Origin: Thermoplasmata archaeon | GTDB lineage: Archaea; Thermoplasmatota; Thermoplasmata; GCA-020350865 | Direction of reading: 5' to 3' | Assembly (NCBI GenBank): GCA_020348445.1 | Contig: CP070751.1 | Coordinates: forward strand, 692,421 to 756,420 | DNA: 64,000 nt | Shown: in pieces, positions 35,171 to 59,217 of the stretch | How positions within the stretch are numbered: the stretch's first letter is position 1 | How the letters are laid out: each line of letters begins with the position of its first letter | Translations under genes and position numbers: made by a program | Notes under the pieces: generated by a model | What the model saw: the letters and a program-made list of their open reading frames with translations, nothing else | Database searches by the model: none | Told to the model about the DNA's origin: nothing

Positions 35171-36211
35171 TTATCTTGTTATATCGATGGTTTTGACCTT
35201 CTCGTAGTTATCAGGATTCTTTTCAAAGTAGTCTCTTACAGAATCGAGAATATCTGTCAGGTACTGACCCACCGCATTTTTTAGATCCTGAGGGTGCAGC
35301 TGGCCTGATTCAAAAACATCCTTTAACTCCTCATAACCGTTTATCTCCAAATCCCCTCCAAATTTCTCGGGCCGGGAAATCGTTATGCTATCTAATCTAT
35401 TGAATATTATATATCTGCATAAATCTATGATGGGATTATCCTCTATCTGCCCCTCTGGACAGTAGGCCTTCTTTATCTTCTTTTTTATGTCCTCTGGAGA
35501 GTCGTGGATAAATATCGTGTTTTCGGGATTGGACTTGGACATTTTCGCCTCGATGGGATCCATTCTTCCCCAACCCTGTAAACCAGATAAAAGGGGTGTA
35601 TGGAGGGCCACAACCTTCTTCAGACCAAGTTTTTCAGAAACATCCCTTGCCAGCATATGAGCCTTTCTCTGGTCCATTCCCCCGTATGCCACATCTACAT
35701 CCAGCTGGAATATGTCAGCAACCTGCATTGCAGGGTAGATGAGCATTGATGCATCTATATTTGCCTCATCCTCCTTTCTCCCCATGATGGTCAGGGTCCT
35801 TTTGATTCTTGAGAGGGAGCTGTGCTTGGAGATTCTCATCACCTTTTCCCAGTATTCTATACCATTTAATAGGTCGGTGGCGTATACGAATTCCAAATCA
35901 TCAGAAGCAACGGAAAATGCTGAAAAACAGTCCTTGATGTACTCTCCGCAAGCCCTGATATTCTCGATATCACCACCAAGCTTGTCGTTGAGATAGGCGT
36001 GCCAGTCTGCAAGGAGAATGGTCACCTTAAAACCGGCATCTAAAAGATCTTTGACCTTATCAATGCAAATTATGGAGCCTATATGCACAAGACCAGAGGG
36101 CTCGATACCGATATATGCAGTGGGTTTTTTCTTCTCATCCAGTAATGCGGTAAGTTCTTCGTGGGTAACTATTTCCTCTGTGTTGTGGATTATCCTCTCC
36201 AATTGGCTCAT
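35171..36211 (-). CDS. tyrS: Tyrosine--tRNA ligase (archaeal type)
   Basis: YIGIEPSGLVHIG, YPAMQVADIF, GGMDQRKAHMLARD, KMSKS; probable start ATG 36211. Confidence 0.96.
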   Translation of the reverse strand: MSQLERIIHNTEEIVTHEELTALLDEKKKPTAYIGIEPSGLVHIGSIICIDKVKDLLDAGFKVTILLADWHAYLNDKLGGDIENIRACGEYIKDCFSAFSVASDDLEFVYATDLLNGIEYWEKVMRISKHSSLSRIKRTLTIMGRKEDEANIDASMLIYPAMQVADIFQLDVDVAYGGMDQRKAHMLARDVSEKLGLKKVVALHTPLLSGLQGWGRMDPIEAKMSKSNPENTIFIHDSPEDIKKKIKKAYCPEGQIEDNPIIDLCRYIIFNRLDSITISRPEKFGGDLEINGYEELKDVFESGQLHPQDLKNAVGQYLTDILDSVRDYFEKNPDNYEKVKTIDITR

Positions 36212-36343
36212 GATCCTCACGACGGGTGATATGTAAAAGGATGTAAAAGAGGGTTTTGGTTCGAAAGAACTCGAGAATCGGGAAGTTTTAAAAGGAAGAA
36301 AAACGATACAGGTTGCGGGTGCTAAAAAGAAGAGGTGATTTGA

Positions 36344-42241: not shown

Positions 42242-42365
42242 TTTTACGACCTTTGCCGTGCATAGATATTGTTAAATATAGGTTTTGTGGGAATTATCCT
42301 TGCATACTATTGTACATTTCATCAATATTGATAAGAAAATAACTTATTTAGTTGTTGATAAATCT

Positions 42366-42908
42366 TCAATCAGAAGACAAAATTTCCTCACCCAATGTGA
42401 AGAACCCCAGTTCAACATTCTTACCAGTTTTTGCGCTGGAAAGATAGGCATACGAGCGTTTGAATTTAGAGCAGAATTTATCAAGCTCTTTAATATTTAT
42501 TTCGGCTTCCTTCTTCAAATCGCATTTATTGGCGAGAAAAACTATAGGAACCTCGCCTGAAATGGAATACACGGCCTTGACCCAATCTTCAAGATACAAC
42601 ATGGTGTCGCGTCTTGTGATGTCGCAGACAGCCACAACGCCCTGACATCCGAAAAAATACGCATTCTGAAGCATCTGGCGAAAACCCTGCTGGCCCATGA
42701 TATCCCAGACGAGCATCCTAATATTTGTTGAGGTGCGTCTTCTTGGATGCTTGAGGGTCACCTCTTTTTTTGTGATTTTGGTGCCTAGGGTGGTGATGTA
42801 CTTATCAGAGAACTGATCGAAGACGAATCGTTTGATCAAACTGGTTTTACCTACCCCTCCTTCCCCTACGAGGCATATTTTAAAGGAGTAGTCCACTTCG
42901 TTGTTCAT
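42366..42908 (-). CDS. Rab-like small GTPase (Ras superfamily), copy 1
   Basis: G1 GEGGVGKTS, switch I FSDKYITTLG, G3 WDIMGQ, G4 NKCD, G5 SAKTG; start moved to ATG 42908 (GGGGGG SD). Confidence 0.93.
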   Translation of the reverse strand: MNNEVDYSFKICLVGEGGVGKTSLIKRFVFDQFSDKYITTLGTKITKKEVTLKHPRRRTSTNIRMLVWDIMGQQGFRQMLQNAYFFGCQGVVAVCDITRRDTMLYLEDWVKAVYSISGEVPIVFLANKCDLKKEAEINIKELDKFCSKFKRSYAYLSSAKTGKNVELGFFTLGEEILSSD

Positions 42909-43083
42909 CTCTTTCCCCCCCAAGAAATGGTTCTAAATAGGCATTTCAATGGCCTTTAGGGGGATTGCCTTCATCGTTTATAAAACCTTTCCAAAATCTC
43001 ATAAACCATCAAAAACATATAAAATAATGGAATAAAAACCCTTAATAATAGTAAAATATATTCGTTAATTCCGGGGAGTTCAG

Positions 43084-43575
43084 ATGAATAGGACAGAATT
43101 GATGGCAGAAGGCATGTCCCTCGTCGAAAGGGGGAAGTACAAGGAGGCTGTAGAGATTTTTAATGAGATATTAACAGAAGATCCCCAGGATGTTGAAGCC
43201 TGGATCAACAAAGGTTGTGCTTTGCTGTACTTGGAAAAGCCCAGGGAATCCCTACACTGTACAAACAAAGCATTGGAAATCGATTTAAACAACACCATAG
43301 CTTTAAATAACAAAGGAATTGCCCTATTTCGTATAAACGATTTTGAAGGTGCAGAAGACGCCTTTAATAAAACTTTAGAAATAGATCCGAAGTACGCAGA
43401 AGCCTGGTACAACAAAGCCTGTTTAGCATCCGAGCAAAAAAAAGTCTATGAAGCCTTAAGAAATCTTGAAAAGGCCTTGAGTCTTGATAGAAACAGATTC
43501 CTAACCCACGCAAAGATTGACAGACATCTTGACAACATCCGAAATGAAGCGAGATTCAAGGAACTTGTGGATTGA
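43084..43575 (+). CDS. Tetratricopeptide repeat protein (3-4 TPRs plus C-terminal capping helices)
   Basis: EAWINKGCALLYLEKPRESL, IALNNKGIALFRINDFEGAE, EAWYNKACLASEQKKVYEAL..ALSLD..D..LDNIRNEARFKELV. Confidence 0.92.
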   Translation: MNRTELMAEGMSLVERGKYKEAVEIFNEILTEDPQDVEAWINKGCALLYLEKPRESLHCTNKALEIDLNNTIALNNKGIALFRINDFEGAEDAFNKTLEIDPKYAEAWYNKACLASEQKKVYEALRNLEKALSLDRNRFLTHAKIDRHLDNIRNEARFKELVD

Positions 43576-43594
43576 TTGAAAAGGCGGGTTCTTT

Positions 43595-44254
43595 ATGCCT
43601 GGGATGAAATATTTCAGACGGAAGATATGCTTACTTGGTGATGCCGCAGTGGGAAAAACCAGCCTTATCAGAAGATACGTGGAGGACAAATTCGACGATA
43701 AATATGTGGTAACACTTGGAACAAAGGTGACAATGAGGGAACAGGTTATTCAAGACCCAAACAGTAATCAACCAATGAATATGACCCTGATGATTTGGGA
43801 CATATTGGGACAAAGGGAGTACAAGCGGCTTCAAACGAGCTTTTACAGGGGAGCGAACGGAGCTTTAGTTGTGGTAGACATTACAAGAAAAGAGACATTA
43901 GATAGTTTACACGGCTGGATACTATCCCTTTTCAATAGTGTGGGAAAAGTACCTATTCTCATCCTATTAAATAAAAACGATCTTACAGAGCAAACCGCGA
44001 TAAAATCCGAGGATATGGATGATGCGATCAAAAAATATGAGACATCGTATCTACTCACCAGTGCCAAGACAGGAGAAAATGTCGATTTAGCCTTTAAGAA
44101 AATGAGTGAGATGCTGTTATTTAGGGAGCAAAGTAAAGGATCACAAGAAGGGAATTCTAAATCTGACGAAATGAAACAATTTGCAGGCCCAGAAACCAAG
44201 ATTCCATCAGAAACTGGAGCTACCAGCGATAAAAACGACAATGATTCAGCTTGA
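43595..44254 (+). CDS. Rab-like small GTPase (Ras superfamily), copy 2, with ~40-aa polar C-terminal tail
   Basis: G1 GDAAVGKTS, switch I FDDKYVVTLG, G3 WDILGQ, FYRGA, VVDIT, G4 NKND, G5 SAKTG. Confidence 0.93.
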   Translation: MPGMKYFRRKICLLGDAAVGKTSLIRRYVEDKFDDKYVVTLGTKVTMREQVIQDPNSNQPMNMTLMIWDILGQREYKRLQTSFYRGANGALVVVDITRKETLDSLHGWILSLFNSVGKVPILILLNKNDLTEQTAIKSEDMDDAIKKYETSYLLTSAKTGENVDLAFKKMSEMLLFREQSKGSQEGNSKSDEMKQFAGPETKIPSETGATSDKNDNDSA

Positions 44255-44317
44255 GCAAAGGCCGATATGCTGTTTGAGATAGATAACCGGTACAACCAGG
44301 GTATCTGGAGTGAAGCC

Positions 44318-45622
44318 ATGATTGAAGCCGATAACATAGTAAAAAGGTATCCTATAAGAGGGGAAGGGTACAACTGGCGAAAAGCATTTATTTCCGCCAT
44401 CAAAAGGAGAAAGCAGGATGAATTAACGGCATTGTACAATGTGAGCCTGGATGTGCAAAAAAGTGAAATAGTGGGAATTTTAGGGCCCAACGGTGCAGGG
44501 AAGACCACCTTGATCAAGATTTTAGCAGGTCTCCTGGTTCCAGATTCAGGAAAAGCCAGTGTTAATTATTACGATGTGATCAAAAATAGAAAACAGGTGC
44601 GAACGTCCCTCAATCTGCTCAGAAGCGGTGGATGGGTAATGTTCGACTACAAGCTCACAGTATACAACAATCTGAAATACTGGGGTATTGTACAGGGATT
44701 GGGCTGGAATGAAATCAAACCGAGGATCGAAGAGGTCCTGGAAATCGTGAGATTGAAGGATAAAATCAACGAATATCCTGAAAACCTTTCTGCGGGGATG
44801 AGGCAGAAGATGTGCCTTGCGCTTTGCCTTCTCTCCGACAGGCCTATATATCTTCTGGACGAGCCAACCGCGAACATAGACCCGTACTCTGCAAATTTTA
44901 TTCGTGAGTTCGTACGGGATGAACTGGCAGGCAACGGAAAAACCGTTCTTCTGGCCACACATAACCTATGGGAGGCTGAGATGATATGCGACAGAATAGC
45001 CATATTGCTCAAAGGTTGTGTGGTGCTGTTCGACAAAACCGAGGTAATAAAAGGAAGGCGTGAGGGTGGATATATTCTGATAAACGTTTTGAACCTTTCC
45101 GATGATCTGGTGGAGGATCTTTCTTGCCTGGATTTTGTTAGATCTGTATTCCCAAGTTGTCTTCGCGACTCAAAAGGTGAGGACCAGTATCAGCTCGAGA
45201 TCCATGGGGATGTGGAGGAACATCTGCAGGAACTTCTTGAGGTTTGTTTTGGTCATACCGAAGTGGGGAGCATGGAAACCAAAGATCCCTCCCTAAACGA
45301 CATCTTCATGGAGATGATGGAAAGGATAGATTCAGATAAGGCGCAGATTTCAGATAGGTATAAACTCTACAAGAATGCGTTGATCGAGGCTTATGGGGAT
45401 TACGGTGTAATAATCAATGAAAAAAAGGAGTTGCTAAGGGAGATCAAAGAGAGACTCGATATCTCGGACGGGGAGCATAAACAGATAGATGCAATGGTCC
45501 AAGAGGAAATGAAACCAAAGTGGAAGAAAAAGGCAAGGGAGGATAAAAAAGCAGCAAAGCATCTTGACCCAGCAGTTGCTGAGCTGATAAAACTAAAGTC
45601 CGAGCTTGAGGAAGAGGACTAG
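44318..45622 (+). CDS. ABC-2 type transporter ATP-binding protein with extra C-terminal helical domain
   Basis: Walker A GPNGAGKTT, signature LSAGMRQK, Walker B LLDEPT, H-loop ATHN. Start probably ATG 44318 (GGAGTGA SD); track start is 44267. Confidence 0.93.
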   Translation: MIEADNIVKRYPIRGEGYNWRKAFISAIKRRKQDELTALYNVSLDVQKSEIVGILGPNGAGKTTLIKILAGLLVPDSGKASVNYYDVIKNRKQVRTSLNLLRSGGWVMFDYKLTVYNNLKYWGIVQGLGWNEIKPRIEEVLEIVRLKDKINEYPENLSAGMRQKMCLALCLLSDRPIYLLDEPTANIDPYSANFIREFVRDELAGNGKTVLLATHNLWEAEMICDRIAILLKGCVVLFDKTEVIKGRREGGYILINVLNLSDDLVEDLSCLDFVRSVFPSCLRDSKGEDQYQLEIHGDVEEHLQELLEVCFGHTEVGSMETKDPSLNDIFMEMMERIDSDKAQISDRYKLYKNALIEAYGDYGVIINEKKELLREIKERLDISDGEHKQIDAMVQEEMKPKWKKKAREDKKAAKHLDPAVAELIKLKSELEEED

Positions 45623-45669
45623 AGGAGTTAGATTTACCAGCGTATTCATATGAGGAGCAGTTGATTTAA

Positions 45670-46533
45670 ATGGCGGGTGCCAAGCGGAAAATTGGGAAGG
45701 TCAAGCACGGCCTCAACTTCAAAGAAACCATGCATGTAGTTGGCAGCTACATGGCCAAGAATTTCCGGCTTTGGTATCGATTCAAGGTGAGCTTTTTTTT
45801 CACGCTTATTTCCATGGTCGTGGCCATAGCAATATGGTATTTCATGAATAGGGTGCTGGAAATCGGTTTTATGGACGATTACTTCTCCTTCGTGCTAATA
45901 GGTATCGTGATAAACCAGTACGTGCTTACTACATTATCTACCTATCTTGAATCATTAAAGGAACTGTATTGGTCAAACCAGCTGGAATTCTATCTAACGT
46001 CACCATCCAGACTTAAAACCTTCTTTTTGTCATCATTAACCTGGACGTATACATATGCTACAATAAATGCCCTGCTTTATTTCGCTATTGGCATATTCAT
46101 ATTTGATGCCAACCTGATTGTAAATCCCGAGGCGATTCTGATCATTCCCATGCTGTTTCTTTTGATAGTAGGACTTTCGGGCTTTGGGCTTATTTCAGCC
46201 AGTATGTTTCTTCTTGTGGATGCAAAAGGGGAGATAGAGCCCATAAGCTGGGGGATTTCCACGCTCACTCTCCTGGTCTCAGGTGTTGTTTTTCCGTTCG
46301 AGGAGTTTCTCAATATATTCCCGCCCTTATATTATGTGGCCATTGTGCTACCCCAGACCTGGGCAATTCACGGTATCAGGGGATTGCTTCAGGGTGGGGG
46401 CATAGGAAATGCCATTCCCATAATGGGTATACTGGTGATATTTGCATTGATACTTTTTCCTCTTGGTGTTGCCATGTTCAGATTCGGGATAAGAAAGGGG
46501 GAGAGGGTAGGAAGCTTGGCCAAATGGGCGTGA
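45670..46533 (+). CDS. ABC-2 type transporter permease
   Basis: Six hydrophobic segments; YFSFVLIG, LE.YLTSP, LVSGVVFP, LPQTWAIHGIRGLL. Confidence 0.92.
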   Translation: MAGAKRKIGKVKHGLNFKETMHVVGSYMAKNFRLWYRFKVSFFFTLISMVVAIAIWYFMNRVLEIGFMDDYFSFVLIGIVINQYVLTTLSTYLESLKELYWSNQLEFYLTSPSRLKTFFLSSLTWTYTYATINALLYFAIGIFIFDANLIVNPEAILIIPMLFLLIVGLSGFGLISASMFLLVDAKGEIEPISWGISTLTLLVSGVVFPFEEFLNIFPPLYYVAIVLPQTWAIHGIRGLLQGGGIGNAIPIMGILVIFALILFPLGVAMFRFGIRKGERVGSLAKWA

Positions 46534-46621
46534 TTAGCACCGATGAAAAGATAATAAAGGTACGGATTAACTGATGACGATTCTCCCTATCTCTGAAAGG
46601 ATGATATTTGGATAGTATAAC

Positions 46622-46637
46622 CGAAAGATATAAAATA
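46622..46637 (+). promoter_or_regulatory. Candidate BRE-TATA promoter of the giant surface protein gene
   Basis: CGAAAG-ATATAAAATA lies downstream of the track start 46608, supporting a true start at 46680/46686 behind GGAGGAGGGA. Confidence 0.5.
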
Positions 46638-46679
46638 TCCGATTTGGATGGGGTGTCCACTTCCGTCATGGAGGAGGGA

Positions 46680-49600
46680 ATGTCCATGGAAAGAACGTTT
46701 AAGACAGTCATAATCGTGTGCTCGCTGGTGTTTGCTGGACTTTTTGGCATCATCAGCCTTGAAACTGAAATTGCGAGTGCTGGGACGATCCTTCACGTAA
46801 GAGGGGGTCCTCCAGGAAACTATTCAAATATCCAAGATGCTATTAATGCGAGTAGCGATGGGGATACTATTTTGGTTTACAACGGCACTTATTATGAAAA
46901 TATTGTGGTAAATAAGACAATTAATCTTATTGGTGCACATTGGAGTAACACAACAATCGTTGGTGATGGAACCGGTGATGTGGTTTATGTCAACAGAAGT
47001 TGGGTAAACATAACAGGTTTTACCATCACAAATGGCGGCCCTGCCCCGGGTGATGCAGGAGTTGAATTGGACACTGTGAACAACTGCAATATCTCATTTT
47101 GCAACATTTCTGATAACTTAGGCGATGGTATCTTTGTATCCACATCCACGAACAACAATATAAATAACAATTCTGTTCATGACAATGAATACGGCATATT
47201 TTTAGGTCAGGCTCCAGACAATATTCTTCGTGACAACACAATTGACAACAACGCTTACAATTTCGGAGTTCGAGGATTGGCTGTCTTGGATTATCATCAA
47301 GATATCGATATTTCCAACACAATCAACGGGAAACCCATATACTACATCATCGGGCAAAGCGGGCTCGTTTTTGATGAAACCACACCCGTTGGCTACTTGG
47401 GATTAATTTCCTGCGAGAATATAGAGGTAAAAAATCTCGTTCTCACCAATAATTACCATGGAATATTACTGGTGAACACCACAAACTCAACTATCACGAA
47501 CTTAACTTTATTTGATAATTATTATGGTGCTTACCTGTATCTTAATTCAATCAACAACAGCATCACAGATTCCTATATTCACGACAATTTCTGGGTGGGG
47601 ATAGGACTTGAGTTTTCCCATGATAACAGAATAGAATGGAATATGATTTCAAACAACGACTATGGTCTTCGCTTTTTAGTGACTGTAAATAATACCATTT
47701 ATCAAAATTACATTCAGGACAACAACTATGGAATATATCTAGGCTCCTCAATAAATATTACAGTGTATCACAACAACCTAATAAACAACACGATCCAAGC
47801 CATGGACGATGAAATCAACAAATGGAACATCGCCCCTCCTTTTGGTGGTAACTTCTGGTCTGACTGGTATTTCCCAGATGACGACTGCGACGGCTTTGTT
47901 GACTACCCACGAATCATCCCGATTTCCGAGGAAGCGATAATAATAACAGAGATCATGAAGAATCCTGTTGCAGTTGGTGACACGCAAGGAGAATGGTTTG
48001 AGATATACAACGCAGGAACGACAACAGTGGATATCAACGATTGGGAAATAAAAGATAGCGGGGTAATTGACAGCCACATAATTAACAACGGGGGACCCCT
48101 TACAATTGCTCCAGGTGAATATCTGGTACTTGGGATAAATGCAAGTTACTTTGAAAACGGCGGTGTTTTAGTGGACTACGAGTACTCCAATTTCGTCCTT
48201 GCCAATCTTGATGATGAGATAATTCTCATGGATGGTTTAGTTGAGATGGATAGGGTGGAATATGATGATGGCACAAATTGGCCAAGTCCCACAGGCGCAT
48301 CCATGGAGCTTTTGGATTACACTAAAGATAACAACGATTATACGAACTGGCAGGAAACTCCACCCTCTGAACCGTACGGAATGGGAGATTATGGAACACC
48401 TGGAAGGGATAATACTGGCCTTACCCATTCCCGTGACAATTTTGCCTACACATACGAAAACAGCTGGTATACGGGTTGGTTCAACAAATCCGTGTACATG
48501 AACTATGCCCCAATGGGCATGCCTGATTTTGATCAGCGCGAAAAGGCTCTGCGAACTGGACAAGATTATTGGAAGACCATTAATGCAGGTCAAAACGGTG
48601 TTTTAGACTCCGGGCCCCTTACGGGCGATGATGTCCTTGTAAATTCCTCTGCTGGACAAAACAATGTCAGCATTGCTCCTGGGGCAAACCATGTGATCGA
48701 TACACCGCTTGGTGGTGACGACACCTTAGAATACTCATATTGCGGGCCCACAGCTGCTGTTAATGGCTTGTGGTGGTTGGATTCCAAATTTGCAGATCCT
48801 ATTGGAACCCAGGGAGACGGAAATGACGATCATTCTCTTGTTCCAGACCTTGGTGGAGGCGATGACCATGCCCGTGATAATGTTCAATTTCTAATTGAAG
48901 AACTTGCTGAATTGTTCAAAACAAATGAAACAGGCTCCACTACCGTATCAAATATGGTTGACGGTCTCAACCAGTGGTTCGATCTTCAAGGTCAGAGAAT
49001 AAATTACACGGCCCATAGCATATCATGGCCAATGTGGGAGAAAGTGGCAGAAGAGGTGCGAAAATGTAACGTTGCAATACTCTTTTTAGGGTTCTATGAT
49101 GATGAAGGCAACAGAACATACGGGCACATCGTCACTGTCTCAGGGGTGAACCAGGGTGGCTTTATGATTGCAATCAGCGACCCCATAAAAAATGCAGCAA
49201 ATCCAATTGCCGACTTCTCATCGTACAACGATCCCCTCAATGTCTCTCACGATATATACATAGTCCTGCCAGGTCCTCCACCCATTGTAAATCCACCCCC
49301 CTCCTGGATGTTGCTCGAAAGTTACACCTCAGGGTACGGTTTTCCAATGCCTCCAATTTACTATGCAGTTGTCGAGGAAGTTGTTATTATCTCCCCCATA
49401 ATACCAACAGTGGATTATATCGAAATCACAGATGTTCCAGATGGTACACCCCTTACAGGGGGAATTATTTCTGTGGGTTTTTCAGAATGGGGCAATTGCT
49501 CTCTTTACAACAATACTGTAGGATATATGGGCACGGTAAATGCCAACTGGACAGTCCAAGGTGGCACATCCTCATTGCTTGGACCAACACCCGATGTGAC

Positions 49601-52600: not shown

Positions 52601-54431
52601 GCACAAAACAAATGTCGTCTATGTTCTGGCTTTGCCTTCTTCGCCACAGAATGTTAGCAAGGACTCAGGAAAATCTTTTATTCATCTATCTTGGAAAGCT
52701 CCTGAATCTAATGGAAGCGCCCCGATTACAGGTTATATAATTTACAGGGGTGATGCAGCAGATAATCTGACTAAAGTAACTGAAGTTGTAGATATATTTG
52801 ATTACAATGATACCGGCGTGGTAAACGGCGTTACATACTACTATGCCGTGAGCGCAAACACCAACATTGGTGAAGGACCAAAATCCGATGCGATCCCTAT
52901 TACGGCAGGATTAGTGCCATCTGCGCCATATGATTTAATGGTAACGCCAGGTACTGATCAAATAACCCTCACTTGGAAGGCTCCACTTGCTGATGGGGGG
53001 CTTAATATAACCAACTATCAGATATACAGGGGATATAATCCAAACGAAATAACGTTTTGGGAAAAGATTGGAAATGTAACGAGCTATACCGACTTTTTGG
53101 TGTTCAATGAGACTATCTATTACTACCAGGTGCAGGCAGTAAATGATCTAGGGGCTGGCCTATTATCTAATGCCGATAGTGCGGAGCTTATGGGTCTTCC
53201 TTCTGAACCAACGACATTAATTGCCACAGCAGGAGATTCTGTTGTTCACCTATCTTGGGGTGCCCCACATTTAATACGCGGTTCTGCCGTCACAAATTAC
53301 AGGATCTATAAAGGCGAATCACCAGATGATATGCCAACGATCATCGATATCGATGATTCCCTATTCTATGACGATTACGATGTAACAAATAATATCACCT
53401 ATTACTACAAAGTGTCGGCGATAAACGCAATAGGGGAAGGTCCATTTTCGAATGTGGACGATGCCACACCAACTGTCCCTCCCCTACCTGTAAATATGAT
53501 CCCCACATGCACGATCTCCACGCCATCTACAGAAGCCGTAGTAAATGGTACGATTTTAATAAATGGAACTGCATCTGACAGTGATGGTACAATCCAATTA
53601 ATTCAAATAAGAATTGACGAAAATGATTGGATAAATATAACAGGTAACGAATCTTGGAGTTATGAATTGGACACAACTGAATTACCCAATGGTAGACACA
53701 GTATAGCGGTAAGGTCATTTGATGGTGAGGATTACTCCCCAGCTGCCTCCATAAGTATTATTGTGGACAATCCTCCATCTCCGAAAGAGAAGTCCTTCTT
53801 CGAAGAAGCAGGACCTTGGCTCTTGCTTGTGGTCATCATTATACTTCTTCTTATATTGCTCCTACTTATATTAAGAAGAAGAAAGAAAGAAGAGGGAGAG
53901 GAGGAAGAGGAGGAACTTGAAGAGGAAGAAGAGGAGGAGCTTGATGAGGATTTGGTTGAGGAGTTACTGGAAGAGGATGAAGAGGAGCCCGAAGAGGAAT
54001 TAGATGAGGATTTTTTAGATGAAGAGGAGCCTGAGGAGGAACTCGAAGAGGAACTTATGGAGGAAGAAGAGGAAGAATTGGAGGATGAAGAAGAGCCAAA
54101 GGAGGAATTAAAAGAAGAAGAGTTGGATGAGGAGGCCGGTGAGGAGGCGGAAGAAGAGGCACCAAAAGAGGAATTGGAAGGGGAAGGATTAAAGAAAGAA
54201 GCAGAGGTAGATGAGGAACTGAAACCTCTTGGATACGAAGGAGCTACAGAGGACAAAGAAGAATCTGAGAAGGTGTCAGATGAAGAGGAAGCCGAATCTG
54301 ATAAAAAGGCTTCTTCAGAGGAAGAGAAAGGTGAAGATGAGACGGAAGTATTCGAGTGCCCTGAATGCGGGGCCAACATCTCCTCAACAGATTCTGTGTG
54401 TCCAAAATGCGGGACTGAATTCGTAGATTAA
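46680..54431 (+). CDS. Giant (~2580 aa) surface glycoprotein: signal peptide, NosD-like beta-helix, lamin-tail domain, papain-like (C39-like) Cys-His-Asp domain, 11 EWGxCS repeats, three FN3, Ig-like domain, TM, Glu-rich tail, Cys4 zinc ribbon
   Basis: GGNFWSD end of beta-helix; IIITEIMKNP..GEWFEIYN; YCGPTAA / GHIVTVSG / ISDP; YYYAVSA, YYYQVQA and YYYKVSA FN3s; TM WLLLVVIIILLLILLLLILRRRKK; FECPECG..CPKCG. Confidence 0.9.
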   Translation: MSMERTFKTVIIVCSLVFAGLFGIISLETEIASAGTILHVRGGPPGNYSNIQDAINASSDGDTILVYNGTYYENIVVNKTINLIGAHWSNTTIVGDGTGDVVYVNRSWVNITGFTITNGGPAPGDAGVELDTVNNCNISFCNISDNLGDGIFVSTSTNNNINNNSVHDNEYGIFLGQAPDNILRDNTIDNNAYNFGVRGLAVLDYHQDIDISNTINGKPIYYIIGQSGLVFDETTPVGYLGLISCENIEVKNLVLTNNYHGILLVNTTNSTITNLTLFDNYYGAYLYLNSINNSITDSYIHDNFWVGIGLEFSHDNRIEWNMISNNDYGLRFLVTVNNTIYQNYIQDNNYGIYLGSSINITVYHNNLINNTIQAMDDEINKWNIAPPFGGNFWSDWYFPDDDCDGFVDYPRIIPISEEAIIITEIMKNPVAVGDTQGEWFEIYNAGTTTVDINDWEIKDSGVIDSHIINNGGPLTIAPGEYLVLGINASYFENGGVLVDYEYSNFVLANLDDEIILMDGLVEMDRVEYDDGTNWPSPTGASMELLDYTKDNNDYTNWQETPPSEPYGMGDYGTPGRDNTGLTHSRDNFAYTYENSWYTGWFNKSVYMNYAPMGMPDFDQREKALRTGQDYWKTINAGQNGVLDSGPLTGDDVLVNSSAGQNNVSIAPGANHVIDTPLGGDDTLEYSYCGPTAAVNGLWWLDSKFADPIGTQGDGNDDHSLVPDLGGGDDHARDNVQFLIEELAELFKTNETGSTTVSNMVDGLNQWFDLQGQRINYTAHSISWPMWEKVAEEVRKCNVAILFLGFYDDEGNRTYGHIVTVSGVNQGGFMIAISDPIKNAANPIADFSSYNDPLNVSHDIYIVLPGPPPIVNPPPSWMLLESYTSGYGFPMPPIYYAVVEEVVIISPIIPTVDYIEITDVPDGTPLTGGIISVGFSEWGNCSLYNNTVGYMGTVNANWTVQGGTSSLLGPTPDVTNGVYVGTTGATVWLNVSYDVFNDSVQYDVLSPTVDYMEITDTPGGTPLGDKTVILGFSEWGNCSLYNNSIGYFKSEDAEWSAFGGNSTLLNVTPTVMNGIYVGTIPGTTVWLNASYYDGNNWHNDSVVYIIPTVDYINITDAPDGTTLSGGIVPVSYQEWGYCSGYNITEGYIGIVYSDWTTFGGASLLLGTTPATLNGIDVGGTAGFVWLNASFQGHNASVKYNVSTATIDYIRITDVSGGTPLMGGIVPIGFLEWGNCSAYNDTIGFLYAVSADWTAEGGTSQLLNVTTPKIRNGIDVGSTLGFVWLNASYNGHTYSVRYNVTLPTLDYVEITDTPGGTPLEDGIVPLDYQEWGNFSLYNDTIGYYGIVAANWTAQGGLSSLLDIPQAVMNGIDVGNTSGTVWLNASYYDGINWYNDSVIYIIPTIDYIDITDIPNGTPLSGGVVPMGFEQWGNCSAYNDTEGFIGTVAADWTAQGGGATLLGPTPGHRNGIYVGITIGTTWLNASYLGLNDSVVYIIPSPYDFINITDIPDGTPLVNKTVPVGYIEWGNCSLYNLTAGFIGVVDADWTVEGGNATLLGSSPNIMNGIDVGTIPGFVWLNASYYGINDSVRFYVISPTVDYIRITDVPDGTSLAGGNVPVGFIEWGNCSAYNNTVGYMGTLNANWTAEGGTSILIGSSQGHGNGIDVGLSEGEVWFNASYFDGVDWHYDSVIYILTPTVDYIQITDIPDGYILGGGIVPINFSEWGNCSAYNNTAGFLQVMIANWTVVGGNAILTGSAQAAYSGIDVGTVPGLVWFNASYDVYNASIQYEVLSQQVDRIEITDIPNGTNLTGGFVMLGFVEWGNCSAYNDTGDYIGTVNARWTVEGGSAQLLGPSPAKMNGIDGGFTPGTIWFKASYYDGTKWHNDSVMYIILIVDRIEITDTPNGTILEGGLVMVGFLEWGNCSAYNDTEGFISTVIANWTVEGGLAQLLGPTPSETNGIDIGTTPSIVWFNASYNGHKTNVVYVLALPSSPQNVSKDSGKSFIHLSWKAPESNGSAPITGYIIYRGDAADNLTKVTEVVDIFDYNDTGVVNGVTYYYAVSANTNIGEGPKSDAIPITAGLVPSAPYDLMVTPGTDQITLTWKAPLADGGLNITNYQIYRGYNPNEITFWEKIGNVTSYTDFLVFNETIYYYQVQAVNDLGAGLLSNADSAELMGLPSEPTTLIATAGDSVVHLSWGAPHLIRGSAVTNYRIYKGESPDDMPTIIDIDDSLFYDDYDVTNNITYYYKVSAINAIGEGPFSNVDDATPTVPPLPVNMIPTCTISTPSTEAVVNGTILINGTASDSDGTIQLIQIRIDENDWINITGNESWSYELDTTELPNGRHSIAVRSFDGEDYSPAASISIIVDNPPSPKEKSFFEEAGPWLLLVVIIILLLILLLLILRRRKKEEGEEEEEELEEEEEEELDEDLVEELLEEDEEEPEEELDEDFLDEEEPEEELEEELMEEEEEELEDEEEPKEELKEEELDEEAGEEAEEEAPKEELEGEGLKKEAEVDEELKPLGYEGATEDKEESEKVSDEEEAESDKKASSEEEKGEDETEVFECPECGANISSTDSVCPKCGTEFVD
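49404..52640 (+). repeat. 11 tandem coding repeats of ~97-100 aa (PTVDYIEITD..EWGNCS.YN..ANWT..GG..NGIDVG..WLNASY)
   Basis: Eleven (E/Q)WG(N/Y)(C/F)S motifs counted between ~49485 and ~52430. Confidence 0.9.
53885..54350 (+). repeat. Low-complexity purine-rich GAA/GAG tract encoding a Glu-rich cytoplasmic linker
   Basis: Runs such as EEEEEELEEEEEEELDEDL..EEEPEEELEEELMEEEEEEL. Confidence 0.85.
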
Positions 54432-54475
54432 TAATATAAGATGTTTGAGGAAAAAGATTAAAGGGAGGCTTAAAA

Positions 54476-55000
54476 ATGCAGGTATACAGATGTAAGATAT
54501 GCGGTGATCCATACCTAGGGGAAGAGAAGCCCACGAACTGTCCTTTCTGTGGAGCCCCGGCAGAGTACATGATATTTGCAATGGATTGGAGGGATCCTGC
54601 AATCGAGGATTTATCAAGTATTTCAAAGCAGAACCTCGAAATTGCCCTTGAGCTTGAGACTGAAAACACGAAATTTTATATGTGCGCATCAGAAATGACC
54701 TCTAATGTTGAGGGAAAGCAGTTGTTTCGTGCCTTGTCCAAGATCGAAAGTGAGCACGCCTCAGTGATAGCAAAGATTCTCAGGGTAAAAAAACCCCAGG
54801 TAGAACTGGATAAACTGGCCTGCTACCCTTCTTACAAGGATAATCTCAAAGATGCTCAAGATAGGGAGGAGAGGGCAATAAAAGAATACAGCAAGTTCTT
54901 CAAGGATGCAAAGGAACCCAGGCTAAAGGAGATATTCCAAGCCTTGGCCATGATCGAAAAGGATCACCTGACGCTTGCAAAGGAGAGGTTGAAGGGGTAG
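54476..55000 (+). CDS. Reverse-rubrerythrin-like protein (N-terminal rubredoxin-like CxxC..CxxC, C-terminal ferritin-like diiron domain)
   Basis: YRCKICG..CPFCG; ELETEN..FY, ESEH, EERA..Y, EKDH. Confidence 0.88.
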   Translation: MQVYRCKICGDPYLGEEKPTNCPFCGAPAEYMIFAMDWRDPAIEDLSSISKQNLEIALELETENTKFYMCASEMTSNVEGKQLFRALSKIESEHASVIAKILRVKKPQVELDKLACYPSYKDNLKDAQDREERAIKEYSKFFKDAKEPRLKEIFQALAMIEKDHLTLAKERLKG

Positions 55001-55120
55001 GTTTTTCGATAACTTTTTATTTTTATTCACGTATTTATGTTATCATCCTAAATAATAGAAGCGTGCCATACATTACTATTAAGTATCAAAACAACGATTC
55101 TCTAGACTGGAGGGTATCAA

Positions 55121-55291
55121 ATGGTAGAATATCCAATATGTCCAAAGTGTGAGACGAGCCTTAACAACAACATCGGCCATTTTTTTGATTATGTTCCTGA
55201 TGGACACGGCGGAACAATACAGATTTCAATTGATTTTTGTATAAGCTGCGGCTATCCCATAACATCCAAATCTGGTAAAAAAGTTAAGTAG
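55121..55291 (+). CDS. 56-aa Cys4 zinc-finger microprotein (absent from ORF track)
   Basis: Read from DNA: MVEYPICPKCETSLNNNIGHFFDYVPDGHGGTIQISIDFCISCGYPITSKSGKKVK; GGAGGG SD about 6 nt upstream. Confidence 0.72.
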   Translation: MVEYPICPKCETSLNNNIGHFFDYVPDGHGGTIQISIDFCISCGYPITSKSGKKVK

Positions 55292-55407
55292 AAAAAAAGA
55301 GTGGTAATAATCAAGATTTGGGACAAATATGAGAGCCTAGGGGTACTAAAAGAACAGCAACAGTAATAAACTCATTATACTATACGGGTTTTAGGGGGAG
55401 AGTCTAA

Positions 55408-58400
55408 GTGAAGTTCATCAAGATTAGAGCAGTATTCTTAATTCTCAGTTTGATATTCAGTATATTCATATTCATTCCAATGAAGGTAATGAAAGCCGAT
55501 GGGGGATCTATAGATGTGGTAATTAATGAGATCATGCATGACCCGCTGGGAATTGAAGTGGATGAAGAATATATTGAGCTTTACAATAATGGAAGTACCA
55601 CCGTAAACCTTGAAAACTGGACGTTAACCGATCAGGATGGTCCTGGGTACGATTTCACTTTTCCGAATATAGATTTTCCTCCAATGACCTACATGATACT
55701 GCACACTGGAGAAGGCTTAAATGATACAGATTTCTCTGATGGTGTTGCACATTTCTATCTCTGGAAAACTTCTGGAATATGGGGTCCATACGAAGATGAT
55801 GTACTTTTAAAAAATGATACAGGAATAGGAATTGATTATGTTGCATATGGTGACGAAGGTCTGGTAGATCCCCCTCCTGCTGACCTAACTTGGAGTGGAT
55901 CAAATCCTTCTGCCGTTGAAGGTGACTCCATATCCCTTCATCCAAATGGCTATGACAGTGATTCAGGATTAAGTTGGGAGAGATCGGATCCAACACCTGG
56001 GAGGACAAATGCACATCTATATGATGATCCCCCAGAGATAATGGAAGTAAGACATACTCCCTTAAATCCAACAACCTCGGAAGGCGTGACAATAATTACA
56101 AATGTTTCAGATGATTATTATTTAGAAACTGTAACCTTGATGTACAATGTCGATGGTTCTGGTTATACCTCATTACCCATGATATTTGAGAGCATGAATT
56201 ACTCAGTTCAACTTCCAGCGCAGACCGAAGGTACAATAGTCGAGTACTACATCCTGGCAATTGACGATGCACAGCAAAACTCAACTACCCAAGTTCATTC
56301 CTTTGCCCATAGTGATTTACCCATTTCCGTAGTTATCAACGAGTTCCTCCCCGATCCAGAGAGTGACTGGAACTGTGATGGATATTTTGATAGTGATGAT
56401 GAGTGGATAGAACTCTACAACCCAGGAGACTTGGTTGTCAATATCGGAGGATGGAAGATCGATGATGCACTGGGCAGTGTAGGCTCATCTGATCCATTCA
56501 CTATTCCGCAAGGAATAAGTATTGGACCTAGAGAATTTCTTGTATTCTATGGAAATGACACCGGGATATTGTTGAACAACAATGGGGATAATGTCACCTT
56601 ACTAAATGAAACTGATACGATAATCGATGTTCACACCTATTATACAAGCAAGGACGACACCACATGCGGGAGATTTCCGGACGGCACAGATGAAATAAAG
56701 GGTTTCCTTCTTCCAACTCCAGGCTACCAAAACCAATATACAGTGGATTCACTGCAAAATGTATCCTACATAAAGATAAACGAATTTCTGCCCACGCCAA
56801 AGACGGTCTTTTCCAATGAATGGATCGAACTCTATAATGCCGGTACAACTCCTGTTAGACTTGACGGCTTGTGGCTCGATGATATATTGGATAGCGGCAC
56901 CAAACCGTGGCAGATTCCTTTGAGCACCACAATCCAACCGCAGCATGTAATACTTTTCAACAGGAGCTTTGGATTGAACAATGCAGGTGATACAGTTAAT
57001 CTCTTATATGTAGATGGCACAACAGTTATTGACAGTTATTGCTATGACACGAGTGAGTACGACATCTCATTTGGCAGGAGCAGCGATGGGGAAGAGTCCT
57101 GGATTAGTTTCAGCCACCCAACACCCAATCAACTCAACACACCATTTGAGGAGCCCAGCTTTCAAGAAAGGAGCATTATAATAATAGAGCTTTTTTACAG
57201 AAGCACAGAAGAAGAATTTCTATGCCTTTTCAATCCATCTGAAACCCATGTCAACATCGGCGGATGGCGAATTTCGGACGGACAGGGTTCCTATTCTGGT
57301 ACCATCATATTTCCCGAAGGCACTATTATGGATTCAAAGGACCATATCTATGTTGCCAGCAGTGCTGTCATCTTTTATAACATTATGAATTTCTATCCCG
57401 ATTTCGAGTATGGTAACTCTTCAGATGCTGTCCCAGAAATGATAAAAAGGGAGATACCGAGCTTTTCAGTCTCAAAAGACGAGGCATTGCTCTTGGACGT
57501 TTTCGGGAATCTAATCGATATCGTGGTGTACGGGGATTCTGAATACAAAGATATAGGTTGGACAGGCTCCCCTATCAACGATGCGAAAAAAGGCGAAATA
57601 CTGAAGAGAAATTATGATGAAATAAATAAGGATTATTTAGATACCAATTCCTCTCTAGATTGGGAACATATAAGGCATTATAAGCCAGGCCAAACTGATT
57701 TCGAGTATGAGACCTTTACATATAACGGTAAAATGACCCTGTTCTCATCCCCTGATTCCAGTTATGATACCGTAGTTTGTGAAATTGAAGGTGCACAGAA
57801 TACGATCTACATAAGCTTGTATCAATTTACAAATTGGAACATTAGCGAGAAAATAATAGAGAAGTTGAATGCCAATGTGGATGTGAAGATTCTCATGGAA
57901 GGCGGCCCAGCTGACGGAATCGCCCAGGAGCAGAAATATATTCTCTCGAAGATTGTAGAAAATGGTGGAGACGTCAGATTCATGGTTACCAACTCCACAC
58001 TTGGAGCAAGATACCGCTATGTACATGCCAAATATGCCATAATAGATGATAAGAAAGTGATAATTTCGTCTGAGAATTGGAAATACACGGGCTTACCAGT
58101 GGACAATACATACGGAAATAGGGGTTGGGGAGTGGTTATTGAAAATACCGATGTGGCAGGATATTTTACAGATGTCTTTTTAGCTGATTGGAGTTCAGTT
58201 GGCTACGACATACTACCTTTCACACCTGATGATCCGACCTACGGAAATCCGTCCTCTAATTTTGAATTAGATGATTGGATTGAATATGGTTATTATGACC
58301 CGATCTTTACAAATGTAACGTTGGAAGGGGAATTTACAGTATCTCCTGTTATATCCCCTGACACGTCTCTCTTGGAGAATGAAGCGATTCTCGGTGCCAT

Positions 58401-59217
58401 AAAATCTGCTGAGGAATCCATTTACATTGAGCAGCTTGATTGCCACCTCAATTGGAACGAGGATGAGTTTGAATATGAGAATCTATTTCTTACGGCTGCT
58501 ATAGAAGCGGCAGAAGAAAGGCATGTGGATGTGAGGATTCTGTTGTCATCAAAGTACGCTTTTTCCGATGATACAGACCTTGATAATTACGATACATATG
58601 ACTATATCAACAAGTATGCACAAAACCATAACATTACTGATTACCTTGAAGCCAGGCTCGTTGATTACGATACACTGGGTCTTTCGAAAGTTCACAACAA
58701 GGGCATGATAGTGGATGGTAAATACACCTTGATCTCAAGCATCAACTGGAACAGGAATTCTGTAACACAGAACCGCGAGGTAGGGGTGATCATCGAAAGC
58801 GATGAGGTAGCTGATTACTTTACCCAGATTTTCCTTTGGGACTGGAACGAGCCACCTTTGGCTAAAATCGAAGTCAACACGACCGCAAGGGCATCCGAGG
58901 TTGTGCAATTCAGGGATTTATCCTTTGATTCAGATGATAATATCATCAGTTATTTCTGGGTTTTTGGGGATGGAACCAATTCCACAGAACCAAATCCTAC
59001 CCACATCTACAAGAAAGAAGGTGTATATGATGTGGTCTTAATAGTGTCCGATGGTCAATATTCTGACAGCTACACCATAACTGTTGTTGTCGGCAAGGCC
59101 GAAGAAGATGATACAGGTGTGAACGCAATCATATATATAGTTCTTTTAATTATCTTTATTATAATAATTGCAATCATAATAGTTTTCATAAGGAGAATGA
59201 GAGAGCTGTTTATCTAA
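55408..59217 (+). CDS. Membrane-anchored extracellular phospholipase D-superfamily enzyme with four lamin-tail domains and a PKD domain
   Basis: LTD starts VVINEIMHDP, VVINEFLPDP, IKINEFLPTP and IIIIELFYRS; two HKD motifs HAKYAIID and HNKGMIVD with SSENW/SSINW; PKD YFWVFGDG..HIYKKEGVY; C-terminal TM. Confidence 0.9.
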   Translation: MKFIKIRAVFLILSLIFSIFIFIPMKVMKADGGSIDVVINEIMHDPLGIEVDEEYIELYNNGSTTVNLENWTLTDQDGPGYDFTFPNIDFPPMTYMILHTGEGLNDTDFSDGVAHFYLWKTSGIWGPYEDDVLLKNDTGIGIDYVAYGDEGLVDPPPADLTWSGSNPSAVEGDSISLHPNGYDSDSGLSWERSDPTPGRTNAHLYDDPPEIMEVRHTPLNPTTSEGVTIITNVSDDYYLETVTLMYNVDGSGYTSLPMIFESMNYSVQLPAQTEGTIVEYYILAIDDAQQNSTTQVHSFAHSDLPISVVINEFLPDPESDWNCDGYFDSDDEWIELYNPGDLVVNIGGWKIDDALGSVGSSDPFTIPQGISIGPREFLVFYGNDTGILLNNNGDNVTLLNETDTIIDVHTYYTSKDDTTCGRFPDGTDEIKGFLLPTPGYQNQYTVDSLQNVSYIKINEFLPTPKTVFSNEWIELYNAGTTPVRLDGLWLDDILDSGTKPWQIPLSTTIQPQHVILFNRSFGLNNAGDTVNLLYVDGTTVIDSYCYDTSEYDISFGRSSDGEESWISFSHPTPNQLNTPFEEPSFQERSIIIIELFYRSTEEEFLCLFNPSETHVNIGGWRISDGQGSYSGTIIFPEGTIMDSKDHIYVASSAVIFYNIMNFYPDFEYGNSSDAVPEMIKREIPSFSVSKDEALLLDVFGNLIDIVVYGDSEYKDIGWTGSPINDAKKGEILKRNYDEINKDYLDTNSSLDWEHIRHYKPGQTDFEYETFTYNGKMTLFSSPDSSYDTVVCEIEGAQNTIYISLYQFTNWNISEKIIEKLNANVDVKILMEGGPADGIAQEQKYILSKIVENGGDVRFMVTNSTLGARYRYVHAKYAIIDDKKVIISSENWKYTGLPVDNTYGNRGWGVVIENTDVAGYFTDVFLADWSSVGYDILPFTPDDPTYGNPSSNFELDDWIEYGYYDPIFTNVTLEGEFTVSPVISPDTSLLENEAILGAIKSAEESIYIEQLDCHLNWNEDEFEYENLFLTAAIEAAEERHVDVRILLSSKYAFSDDTDLDNYDTYDYINKYAQNHNITDYLEARLVDYDTLGLSKVHNKGMIVDGKYTLISSINWNRNSVTQNREVGVIIESDEVADYFTQIFLWDWNEPPLAKIEVNTTARASEVVQFRDLSFDSDDNIISYFWVFGDGTNSTEPNPTHIYKKEGVYDVVLIVSDGQYSDSYTITVVVGKAEEDDTGVNAIIYIVLLIIFIIIIAIIIVFIRRMRELFI

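Follow-up and report, generated by a model that had tools for sequence, protein, structure and literature searches.

DrrAB/ABC-2 (type V) exporters are encoded by two genes, one for an ATPase in which the nucleotide-binding domain is followed by a DrrA C-domain and one for a permease of the six-TM type. NosDFY is the ABC complex of nitrous-oxide reductase maturation, in which NosF and NosY dock NosD. The motif set of Ras GTPases consists of G1 (GxxxxGK[ST]), the switch-I Thr, G3 (DxxGQ, with the catalytic Gln), G4 (NKxD), and G5 (SAK). The conserved gene neighbours of the MglA and Rup groups have been surveyed by Wuichet and Sogaard-Andersen (PMC4316618), and no transporter was found among them in the surveyed portion of that paper. 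In the parts of the literature covered, we also found no description of an ABC-2 exporter directly preceded by genes for a Rab-like GTPase and a TPR protein.

Gene content of the locus

In the window (the whole 64,000-nt stretch of Thermoplasmata archaeon DNA that was analysed), genes for a TPR protein, a Rab-like GTPase (GTPase1), an ABC ATPase, and an ABC-2-type permease lie in a row (43084–46533; hereafter, the cassette) and are followed by surface-protein genes (46608–59217). The features are as follows.

42366..42923, − strand: GTPase2, a Ras/Rab-like small GTPase of 185 aa (Pfam PF00071, Ras, E = 1e-32)
42924..43083, no strand: divergent A+T-rich intergenic region with TATA-like TTTATAAAA and ATATAAAATAA (read from sequence)
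43084..43575, + strand: TPR protein of 163 aa with about four TPR units (Pfam TPR_1/TPR_2, E = 2e-28; NCBIfam TPR end-of-group domain)
43595..44254, + strand: GTPase1, a Rab-like small GTPase of 219 aa (Pfam Ras, E = 2e-36)
44267..45622, + strand: ABC ATPase, DrrA/ABCA-like, with ABC_tran and DrrA1-3_C domains and a tail (PF00005, PF13732)
45320..45619, + strand: C-terminal tail of the ATPase, about 95 aa, genus-specific (conserved in genomes G002–G004)
45670..46533, + strand: ABC-2-type permease of 287 aa with several hydrophobic segments (hydropathy; PF12698 at 20.3 bits, under the cut-off)
46608..54431, + strand: giant type-I membrane surface protein (Pfam domains, TM segments)
54476..55000, + strand: rubrerythrin of 'reverse' order, with the rubredoxin-like domain N-terminal (PF21349, PF02915)
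55121..55291, + strand: Cys-rich ORF of 56 aa, a doubtful gene (weak DZR match, E = 0.0019)
55408..59217, + strand: surface protein of LTDx4-PLDx2-PKD architecture, with a signal at the N-terminus and a TM segment at the C-terminus (Pfam)

The gene positions and strands given in the original prediction were confirmed, with everything from 43084 to 59217 on the + strand. Most of its domain assignments also held, the exceptions being the 'protease-like' and 'glycoprotein' labels of the giant protein and the zinc microprotein proposed for the 56-aa ORF. On balance, we lean towards reading this 17-kb 'locus' as two separable, unrelated units that lie side by side, namely the cassette and the surface-protein genes.

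Conservation of the cassette within the genus

The cassette genes are co-oriented and as tightly packed as had been predicted, with gaps of 19, 12, and 47 nt (TPR–GTPase1, GTPase1–ATPase, and ATPase–permease, respectively). Two of the three ATPase orthologues begin at the equivalent of Met18 (ATG at 44318), which is probably the true start and would widen the second gap to 63 nt. The 12-nt gap before the annotated ATPase start is too short to hold a promoter. The cassette would most likely be transcribed as one unit from 42924–43083, where the TATA-like elements are presumed to be the promoters of GTPase2 and the cassette.

The order TPR–GTPase1–ATPase–permease recurred in five of the six genus-level lineages with usable context. 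The block, including its short gaps, was conserved in G002, G003, G004, and the metagenome contig L057, with protein identities of 57–86%, and another contig (L056) showed ATPase–permease–giant. The TPR orthologues were 58–69% identical and unchanged in position in G002–G004, and the gene was also present in L057. In the closed genome G001, no match to the permease was found, the best GTPase1 match was at the level of a paralogue (48% identity vs 57–68% for orthologues), and no cassette gene lay between the leucyl-tRNA synthetase (LeuRS) gene and the giant. As all four genes are missing in G001 and are jointly kept elsewhere, the cassette genes are present or absent together. We consider the cassette to be an accessory restricted to one Thermoplasmata genus, a reading that we hold with slightly better than even confidence.

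The order of the flanking PPDK, LeuRS, and class-I tRNA synthetase (35171–36220) genes was also kept in these genomes, and the synteny could therefore reflect inherited gene order alone, with no shared function behind it. According to this explanation, the TPR protein and GTPase1 are functionally unrelated to the ABC-2 exporter and are chance neighbours, the order of which has been retained in close relatives. The synteny of these non-operonic neighbours in the same genomes speaks in its favour, but the same-strand gaps of 12–63 nt are typical of co-transcription, and the four genes are jointly absent in G001 while both flanks stay in place.

GTPases and their association with ABC genes

Both GTPases passed the PF00071 cut-off of 21.6 bits (125.4 for GTPase1 and 113.4 for GTPase2). 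Among solved structures, GTPase1 matched the Thorarchaeota Rab 7ezb best (E = 6e-31) and eukaryotic Rabs next. Like MglA/MglB, Rup, and the Asgard Rab-like GTPases, GTPase1 is a single-domain Ras-like protein with intact G1–G5 motifs, which appear in alignment A3 as GDAAVGKTS, TLGT, WDILGQ, NKND/NKSD, and TSAKTG. These motifs and the switch-II Gln73 were invariant in all four orthologues, save the N/S position of G4. In contrast to MglA/MglB, no roadblock/MglB-type gene lies beside GTPase1, the neighbours of which are the TPR protein, in which no TM segment was found, and the ABC ATPase. Unlike eukaryotic-type Rabs, GTPase1 has no C-terminal Cys prenylation motif (CC, CxC, or CaaX) in the C-termini of the four orthologues, which are of low complexity, one of them with an internal Cys (...SKSCESV). 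By analogy with the prokaryotic Ras examples, GTPase1 probably acts with a partner whose gene lies close by.

In the phylogenetic tree, GTPase1 fell in a genus-only clade (support 100/97), and no orthologue was found outside the genus. GTPase2 belonged to another clade; its orthologues occurred in G004 (82% identity) and L057 (61%), and it was not present between the TPR and LeuRS genes in G002. The divergent GTPase2 is an optional extra to the cassette. The genome that contains the window (G000) has at least 35 Ras-family GTPase genes, and Ras GTPase matches were detected in 137 of the 201 sampled genomes of the class. Both the dozens of Ras-like GTPase genes in the lineage and the restriction of GTPase1 to the genus are consistent with chance neighbours. 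In G000, two of 31 ABC ATPase loci lay within 2 kb of a Ras gene, compared with about 0.9 expected by chance according to rough arithmetic for that genome, a figure that also counts for inherited adjacency; at the second of these loci, an Na/Ca exchanger gene separates the two genes.

Outside the genus, the cassette arrangement was not kept. Relatives of the ABC pair stood alone in genomes of Thermoplasmata, Bathyarchaeota, Chloroflexi, and Bacillota, and no GTPase or TPR gene was found near them in 11 further loci or at loci L023–L026. The ABC pair without its cassette partners occurs in many archaea and some bacteria, which is again what inherited adjacency would lead one to expect. By the terms of the original prediction, unrelated contexts of the ABC pair and the GTPases in close relatives would count against it; beyond the genus, such contexts were observed. 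In G005 and G020, which belong to two other families, Ras GTPases are encoded within about 1.5 kb of the orthologous ABC pairs, in convergent orientation with the pair and not co-oriented. These GTPases form one clade (support 98/90) that represents a paralogue other than GTPase1, and no ABC genes lie near their closest relative in G000, which is located at 527 kb. G005 and G020 represent a second, older GTPase–ABC adjacency, and its presence next to an orthologous pair in two other families argues against chance neighbours.

ABC pair and ATPase tail

The ATPase matched ABC_tran (PF00005; 102.8 bits, cut-off 25) and DrrA1-3_C (PF13732; 28.9 bits, cut-off 27.4). Its top NCBIfam model was TIGR01188 (drrA), with a score of 224.7 bits, under the cut-off of 312.45. 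The permease, present in a single copy in G000, matched ABC-2 only weakly (PF12698; 20.3 bits vs a cut-off of 31.6) and scored below the cut-off of every curated family. PF01061 was matched by three of the eight aligned permease orthologues and paralogues (best score 48.1 bits, cut-off 26.9), and when the profile of these eight sequences was compared with the PDB, it matched ABCG alone (E = 0.04). Thus, the pair resembles DrrAB in its two-gene composition, six-TM-type permease, and ATPase domain order, but differs from it in these sub-threshold scores, in the additional tail of the ATPase, and in the TPR and Rab-like GTPase genes directly upstream. These comparisons tip modestly towards an ordinary DrrAB/ABC-2 (type V) exporter.

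The extra domain attributed to the ATPase is real and comprises about 95 C-terminal residues beyond ABC_tran and DrrA1-3_C. It consists of a single TerB/ENT-like helical repeat with a Lys-rich patch and an acidic end, and it had no over-threshold match in Pfam; its only remote relatives were archaeal wHTH proteins with two or three copies of the repeat. The tail was kept in G002–G004 and missing from the G020, G053, and G005 homologues, and the tailed ATPase was seen only where TPR–GTPase1 sits upstream. This co-occurrence is a further point against inherited adjacency, which we regard as rather unlikely.

Neighbouring surface-protein genes

The giant protein begins with a signal/anchor segment, followed by a NosD-type beta-helix, an LTD, a region with conserved Cys/His, and many repeats of about 95 aa, and ends with three FN3 domains, Big_7, a TM segment, an acidic cytoplasmic tail, and a Zn-ribbon. 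TM segments were located at residues 33–51 and 2404–2422. No Pfam peptidase domain supported its description as 'protease-like'; an ESM-Atlas lead pointed at 0.87 to C39_2/IdeS-type cysteine peptidase clusters, a Cys and a His were conserved in three orthologues, and the AlphaFold model (pLDDT 36.8) was too poor for use. The term 'glycoprotein' had 97 N-x-S/T sequons as its sole basis and was not confirmed. The promoter-like element predicted for the giant is present, as the TATA-like GATATAAAATAT at 46627–46638, ahead of ATG codons at 46668 and 46686. The length and architecture of the giant vary widely (1211, 1390, 1703, and 2607 aa). In the rubrerythrin, PF21349 covers residues 4–31 and PF02915 covers residues 53–169. 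Searches of all fetched loci and of the rest of G000 gave no homologue of the 56-aa ORF, and the zinc microprotein was not confirmed. The PLD protein gave weak NucT/DrmC-type matches and has predicted TM segments.

The original prediction proposed a single machine spanning all 17 kb, with a GTPase switch and an ABC-2 system that export, assemble, or release the giant and PLD proteins. The uniform strand fits this idea, as do the beta-helix giant that follows the permease in G002, G003, L056, and L057 and, in G005 and G020, the large LTD-bearing proteins encoded at most about 5 kb from the orthologous ABC pair. However, G001 keeps a giant orthologue (1390 aa) about 215 bp from LeuRS, followed by a rubrerythrin (71% identical), with no GTPase, TPR, or ABC genes there and no permease match genome-wide. 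Besides its variable architecture and its own TATA-like element, the giant has inconstant companions, as no rubrerythrin match was found in the G003 locus, where an orthologue of the PLD gene follows the giant. Moreover, ORFs of at least 1200 aa occupy 23.6% of the genome, and about 40% of its positions have such an ORF within 3 kb; NosD-domain matches number 202 in G000. Giant and NosD-type genes are so frequent that their adjacency to the cassette is expected by chance. Proteins with N-terminal signal/anchor segments normally use the general secretion route, and the segments of the giant and PLD proteins are of this ordinary kind. A single machine is therefore very unlikely. Because G001 keeps the giant and rubrerythrin without the cassette, the giant has its own TATA-like element, and the base rate is high, these genes are independent of the cassette; the giant, rubrerythrin, and PLD protein are neighbours and not cargo. 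The same three observations speak against the proposal that the cassette localises or releases giant surface proteins.

A NosDFY-like complex, in which the giant docks with its NosD-type beta-helix head onto the ATPase and permease, which drive conformational work on it, is suggested by the gene order, since the gene for a NosD-matching beta-helix protein follows those for a DrrA/NosF-like ATPase and an ABC-2-type permease. Residues 75–420 of the giant matched NosD (PF05048, 117 bits; TIGR04247, 93.3 bits), and the alignment of the ATPase with solved NosF covered the full length (E = 2e-27). However, the TIGR04247 score is far below the 300-bit cut-off, ABCA and a Thermotoga ABC protein resemble the ATPase more closely than NosF does, and neither the permease nor its eight-sequence profile matched a solved NosY chain or any family of the NosY type. 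A match to NosD is generic in this genome, making the adjacency unremarkable, and in G005 and G020, no NosD domain occurs in the neighbours of the orthologous pair. Unlike NosD, the beta-helix protein is a multi-domain membrane protein of about 2600 aa that persists in G001 without the ABC pair. No NosZ (PF18764) match was found in G000, but none was found in any of 14 control genomes either, so this search carries no weight. We regard a NosDFY-like complex as very unlikely.

Proposed function of the cassette

A surface-protein export machine is not supported, and the giant, rubrerythrin, and LTD-PLD genes would be separately promoted genes in a genome about one-quarter of which is made up of giant-protein ORFs. 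We consider a GTPase-regulated exporter plausible. In this genus, the ATPase would have gained its TerB/ENT-like, Lys-rich tail of about 95 aa, and the TPR–GTPase pair would have appeared upstream. GTPase1 would cycle between GTP and GDP states and, because it lacks a lipid anchor, would be cytosolic, with the TPR protein acting as an adaptor or regulator that works with it. GTPase1 and the TPR protein may then switch or localise the exporter through the new ATPase tail, a coupling that we propose tentatively, at somewhat less than even confidence.

Gene content of the locus

The original prediction placed a run of GTPase, ABC-2 and surface-protein genes in this part of the window, and its gene content was borne out by an ORF listing combined with Pfam and NCBIfam scans.

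Features of the locus (window coordinates, strand, description)
39350-42241, -, LeuRS
42366-42923, -, GTPase2, Ras family
43084-43575, +, TPR protein, 163 aa
43595-44254, +, GTPase1, Ras family
44267-45622, +, ABC ATPase, 451 aa, with ABC_tran, a DrrA C-domain and ~95 extra residues
45670-46533, +, divergent ABC-2-like permease
46608-54431, +, giant ORF, 2607 codons
54476-55000, +, rubrerythrin with the rubredoxin-first order
55121-55291, +, Cys-rich ORF, 56 aa
55408-59217, +, LTDx4-PLDx2-PKD protein

Among solved structures, GTPase1 is closest to a Thorarchaeota Rab and next closest to eukaryotic Rabs. Across four aligned orthologues, its G1-G5 motifs and the switch-II Gln are invariant, and no prenylation motif was found. 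The permease had no match in the PDB in a single-sequence search, and a profile search led to ABCG (E 0.04). The Rfam and tRNA scans over the window returned zero matches, and the Cys-rich ORF had no detectable relative in the fetched loci or in G000, the genome of the window. The PLD part of the 55408-59217 protein weakly matched nuclease-type PLD models (NucT, DISARM DrmC), and this protein may be a surface nuclease instead of a phospholipase.

A cassette conserved within one genus

The TPR protein, GTPase1, ATPase and permease genes form a cassette that is real and conserved within one genus. When the permease was used as a probe, matches were found in five of the six genomes of the order, G000 included, and two metagenome contigs were added by a metagenome scan with the C-terminal tail of the ATPase as the query.

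Other copies of the cassette
G004 (same genus): GTPase2 (-), then TPR, GTPase1, ATPase and permease (+); adjoins LeuRS
G003 (same genus): contig begins at TPR; TPR, GTPase1, ATPase, permease, 1211-aa beta-helix giant, PLD protein
G002 (same genus): cassette present; TPR-LeuRS interval without GTPase2
L057 (metagenome contig): complete arrangement with GTPase2 and a 1703-aa giant
L056 (short metagenome contig): ATPase, permease and giant only

The intergenic gaps are short in all copies of the cassette, which is probably a single operon, judging from gene order and spacing. Protein identities to the window were 57-68% for GTPase1, 57-69% for the TPR protein, 73-86% for the ATPase and 75-80% for the permease, in shallow alignments of four to six rows with all copies from one genus-level clade. 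Positions 42300-47300 of the window are represented, in whole or in part, in three DNA runs from two sediment-metagenome studies, and one of these runs may be the source of the window's genome; no RNA runs with this region were listed.

The closed genome G001, from the same genus, gave no permease match, and its best GTPase1 match was at the level of a paralogue (48% identity). In this genome, the N-terminal half of LeuRS lies ~215 bp from a giant orthologue, which is followed by rubrerythrin. G001 thus lacks GTPase2, TPR, GTPase1, ATPase and permease as a single block but keeps the flanking genes, which shows that the five genes are gained or lost together. The G001 giant orthologue (1390 aa) has the Cys/His region, FN3 domains and acidic tail seen in the window, and its retention without the block indicates that the giant protein does not depend on these genes. 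By the N-terminal half of LeuRS (87% identity to G000) and the neighbouring tRNA synthetase (84.5%), G001 is no more distant from G000 than the cassette-bearing genomes are (79-82.5%); the block may have been lost from G001 or may never have been present there. The cassette is dispensable.

The LeuRS match in G001 falls into two distant pieces, G001:C1:1715130-1716629 and G001:C1:842158-843732 (loci L051-L053), which correspond to residues 2-501 (87%, in a 565-aa frame) and residues 439-963 (74%, in a 581-aa frame), each retaining one side of the window synteny. Either this essential gene is split or rearranged in G001, or the assembly contains an error.

Surface-protein genes as neighbours

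The original prediction had included the giant and the other surface-protein genes in an export module with a proto-trafficking character. The giant protein begins with a signal or anchor sequence, a NosD-type beta-helix with LTD, a conserved Cys/His region and a long run of ~95-aa repeats, and continues with three FN3 domains and Big_7, a transmembrane helix, a poly-acidic cytoplasmic tail and a terminal Zn-ribbon; it contains 97 N-x-S/T sequons. Its description as protease-like is no more than a lead: neither the Cys/His region nor the ~95-aa repeats had a Pfam match at threshold (scan with E up to 5), but the ESM Atlas linked the former to clusters of C39_2/IdeS-type cysteine peptidases (best score 0.87). 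At window positions 48375-49502 (giant residues ~590-965), the motifs YCGPTAA.NGLWWLDS and GHIVT.SGVN contain an invariant Cys and an invariant His, respectively. The Cys/His block may be a papain-like domain beyond Pfam recognition; its AlphaFold2 model, built on a three-row alignment, was unusable (pLDDT 36.8).

G000 devotes an extreme share of its sequence to giant surface proteins. Stop-to-stop frames of at least 1200 aa number 201 and cover 23.6% of the genome, 74 frames reach at least 2000 aa, and 40% of positions lie within 3 kb of a frame of at least 1200 aa. The window itself contains seven ORFs of at least 600 aa with beta-helix, Ig-like, LTD-type or no recognised domains. The giant and other surface-protein genes are therefore neighbours by abundance and not part of an export module, as is also seen in G001, which keeps the giant without the cassette, and the 17-kb locus as first reported is a composite. 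With the surface-protein genes outside the module, the proto-trafficking reading is not carried forward, and this negative result matters in that it argues against such a reading. An analogy with NosDFY also failed, because the permease is not NosY-like and the NosD match is generic (202 NosD-domain matches in G000). A profile search for nos_propeller found no match in G000 and none in the control genomes either.

The ABC pair and GTPase1 beyond the genus

Gene-neighbourhood conservation held only in part: the cassette order is kept within the genus but not beyond it. Within the class, the permease family has a narrow distribution: 15 of 201 sampled genomes gave matches at E<=1e-10, and about half of these matches were weak. 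Orthologous ABC pairs occur in G005 (another family) and G020 (another order), where the permeases are 55-58% identical and the ATPases are without the tail. These pairs have no TPR-GTPase genes upstream; downstream, on the opposite strand, are Ras GTPases of 283-294 aa. In a maximum-likelihood tree, these ABC-adjacent GTPases formed their own clade (support 98/90), whose sister is a G000 gene at 527 kb and which is unrelated to GTPase1 or GTPase2. No ABC genes surround the 527-kb gene, near which CAP/CARDB secreted proteins are encoded. If GTPase and exporter are true partners, the second GTPase clade next to the orthologous ABC pair in two further families of Thermoplasmata hints that their partnership predates the genus and was later re-formed around a new paralogue.

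No GTPase1 orthologue was found in G005, G020, G006, G053 or G145 (best match 43-50%). No GTPase or TPR neighbours were seen at the paralogous ABC pairs of G020, G053 and G145, nor at 11 further ABC-pair loci from Thermoplasmata, Bathyarchaeota, Brockarchaeota, Chloroflexi and Bacillota. On these comparisons, the ABC part of the cassette appears to be an ordinary DrrAB/ABC-2 exporter, and the GTPase/TPR part a lineage-specific addition. In a Bathyarchaeota contig (L043, 1750-9156), two tandem related ABC pairs adjoin a convergent LeuRS gene, an adjacency whose resemblance to the LeuRS neighbour in the window is probably coincidental.

The C-terminal tail of the ATPase

ATPase residues ~355-451 are conserved in the genus, missing from the G020 and G053 homologues, and had no Pfam match at threshold in a scan with E up to 5. 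When 1.84 billion representatives were searched exhaustively with phmmer, the matches were one orthologue, six archaeal proteins (P0011-P0016) and one coiled-coil protein, the last probably spurious. Five of the six archaeal relatives have a winged-helix Pfam match and one is 110 aa long. A ~50-aa helical repeat is present once in the tail and 2-3 times in each of the six, and Pfam matches of the repeat proteins to ENT/TerB/Tic110 were weak. This repeat constitutes an uncharacterised repeat family. The tail is therefore an interaction-type module that was borrowed, and the lineage that gained it also gained the TPR-GTPase pair upstream; this concurrence is one evolutionary coincidence rather than a statistic.

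Possible coupling of the GTPase to the exporter

Of the 31 ABC-ATPase loci in G000, two have a Ras gene no more than 2 kb away, against a rough expectation of ~0.9 (34 genes x ~4.5 kb / 5.16 Mb x 31). The case outside the window, at 3.5175 Mb, was judged to be due to chance, with a Na/Ca exchanger between divergent genes. Three of the 16 TPR loci have a Ras gene within 1.5 kb (G000:C1 735504, 3698837-3702708 and 4038405), against roughly 0.5 expected, which mildly suggests that TPR proteins repeatedly partner GTPases in this genome. One of the three is a large TPR gene directly upstream of a three-GTPase array. Complex predictions for the ATPase, the TPR protein and GTPase1 as the partner, made from shallow alignments, scored 0.23 and 0.17, against a mark of 0.32.

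Functional coupling of the GTPase/TPR part to the ABC exporter is plausible, with a probability that we place slightly below even. More tentatively, and on balance doubtfully, the Rab-like GTPase and its TPR partner may be true subunits or regulators of the ABC-2 exporter. GTPase1 and the TPR protein would then dock on the newly acquired TerB-like tail of the ATPase, and the outcome would be a membrane transporter gated or positioned by a GTP switch. To our knowledge, such wiring has not been described for prokaryotic Ras-superfamily proteins, and no description of a GTPase-ABC-2 cassette was found in the literature searched.

Ras-family GTPases in Thermoplasmata

Rab/Ras-like GTPases are usually treated as a eukaryote-like trait of Asgard archaea. 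The host here is a member of the Thermoplasmata, not an Asgard archaeon, and its closed 5.16-Mb genome has 35 Ras-family matches, among them a cluster of six Rab-like genes at another site. There were 24-32 matches in the same-genus genomes and 10-13 in two neighbouring families; at least one match was present in 137 of the 201 sampled class genomes, many with 5 to at least 17 copies. No paper describing this expansion was found in the literature searched. A large subfamily of ~280-310 aa, often in tandem arrays, has a conserved ~100-aa helical C-terminal domain, as in the fetched loci L009:2694-3545(-) and L022:7859-8743(-) and in G000 clusters near 3.131-3.137, 3.703-3.706 and 5.07 Mb; this C-terminal domain had no Pfam match at threshold (E up to 5).

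Rab/Ras-like GTPases are thus abundant in Thermoplasmata, beyond the Asgard archaea. The cassette, with its GTPase switch, TPR adaptor and transporter on a probable single transcript, provides a concrete and testable effector candidate for an archaeal small GTPase and, if the coupling is true, would represent a membrane transporter under the control of a GTP switch in a non-Asgard archaeon.
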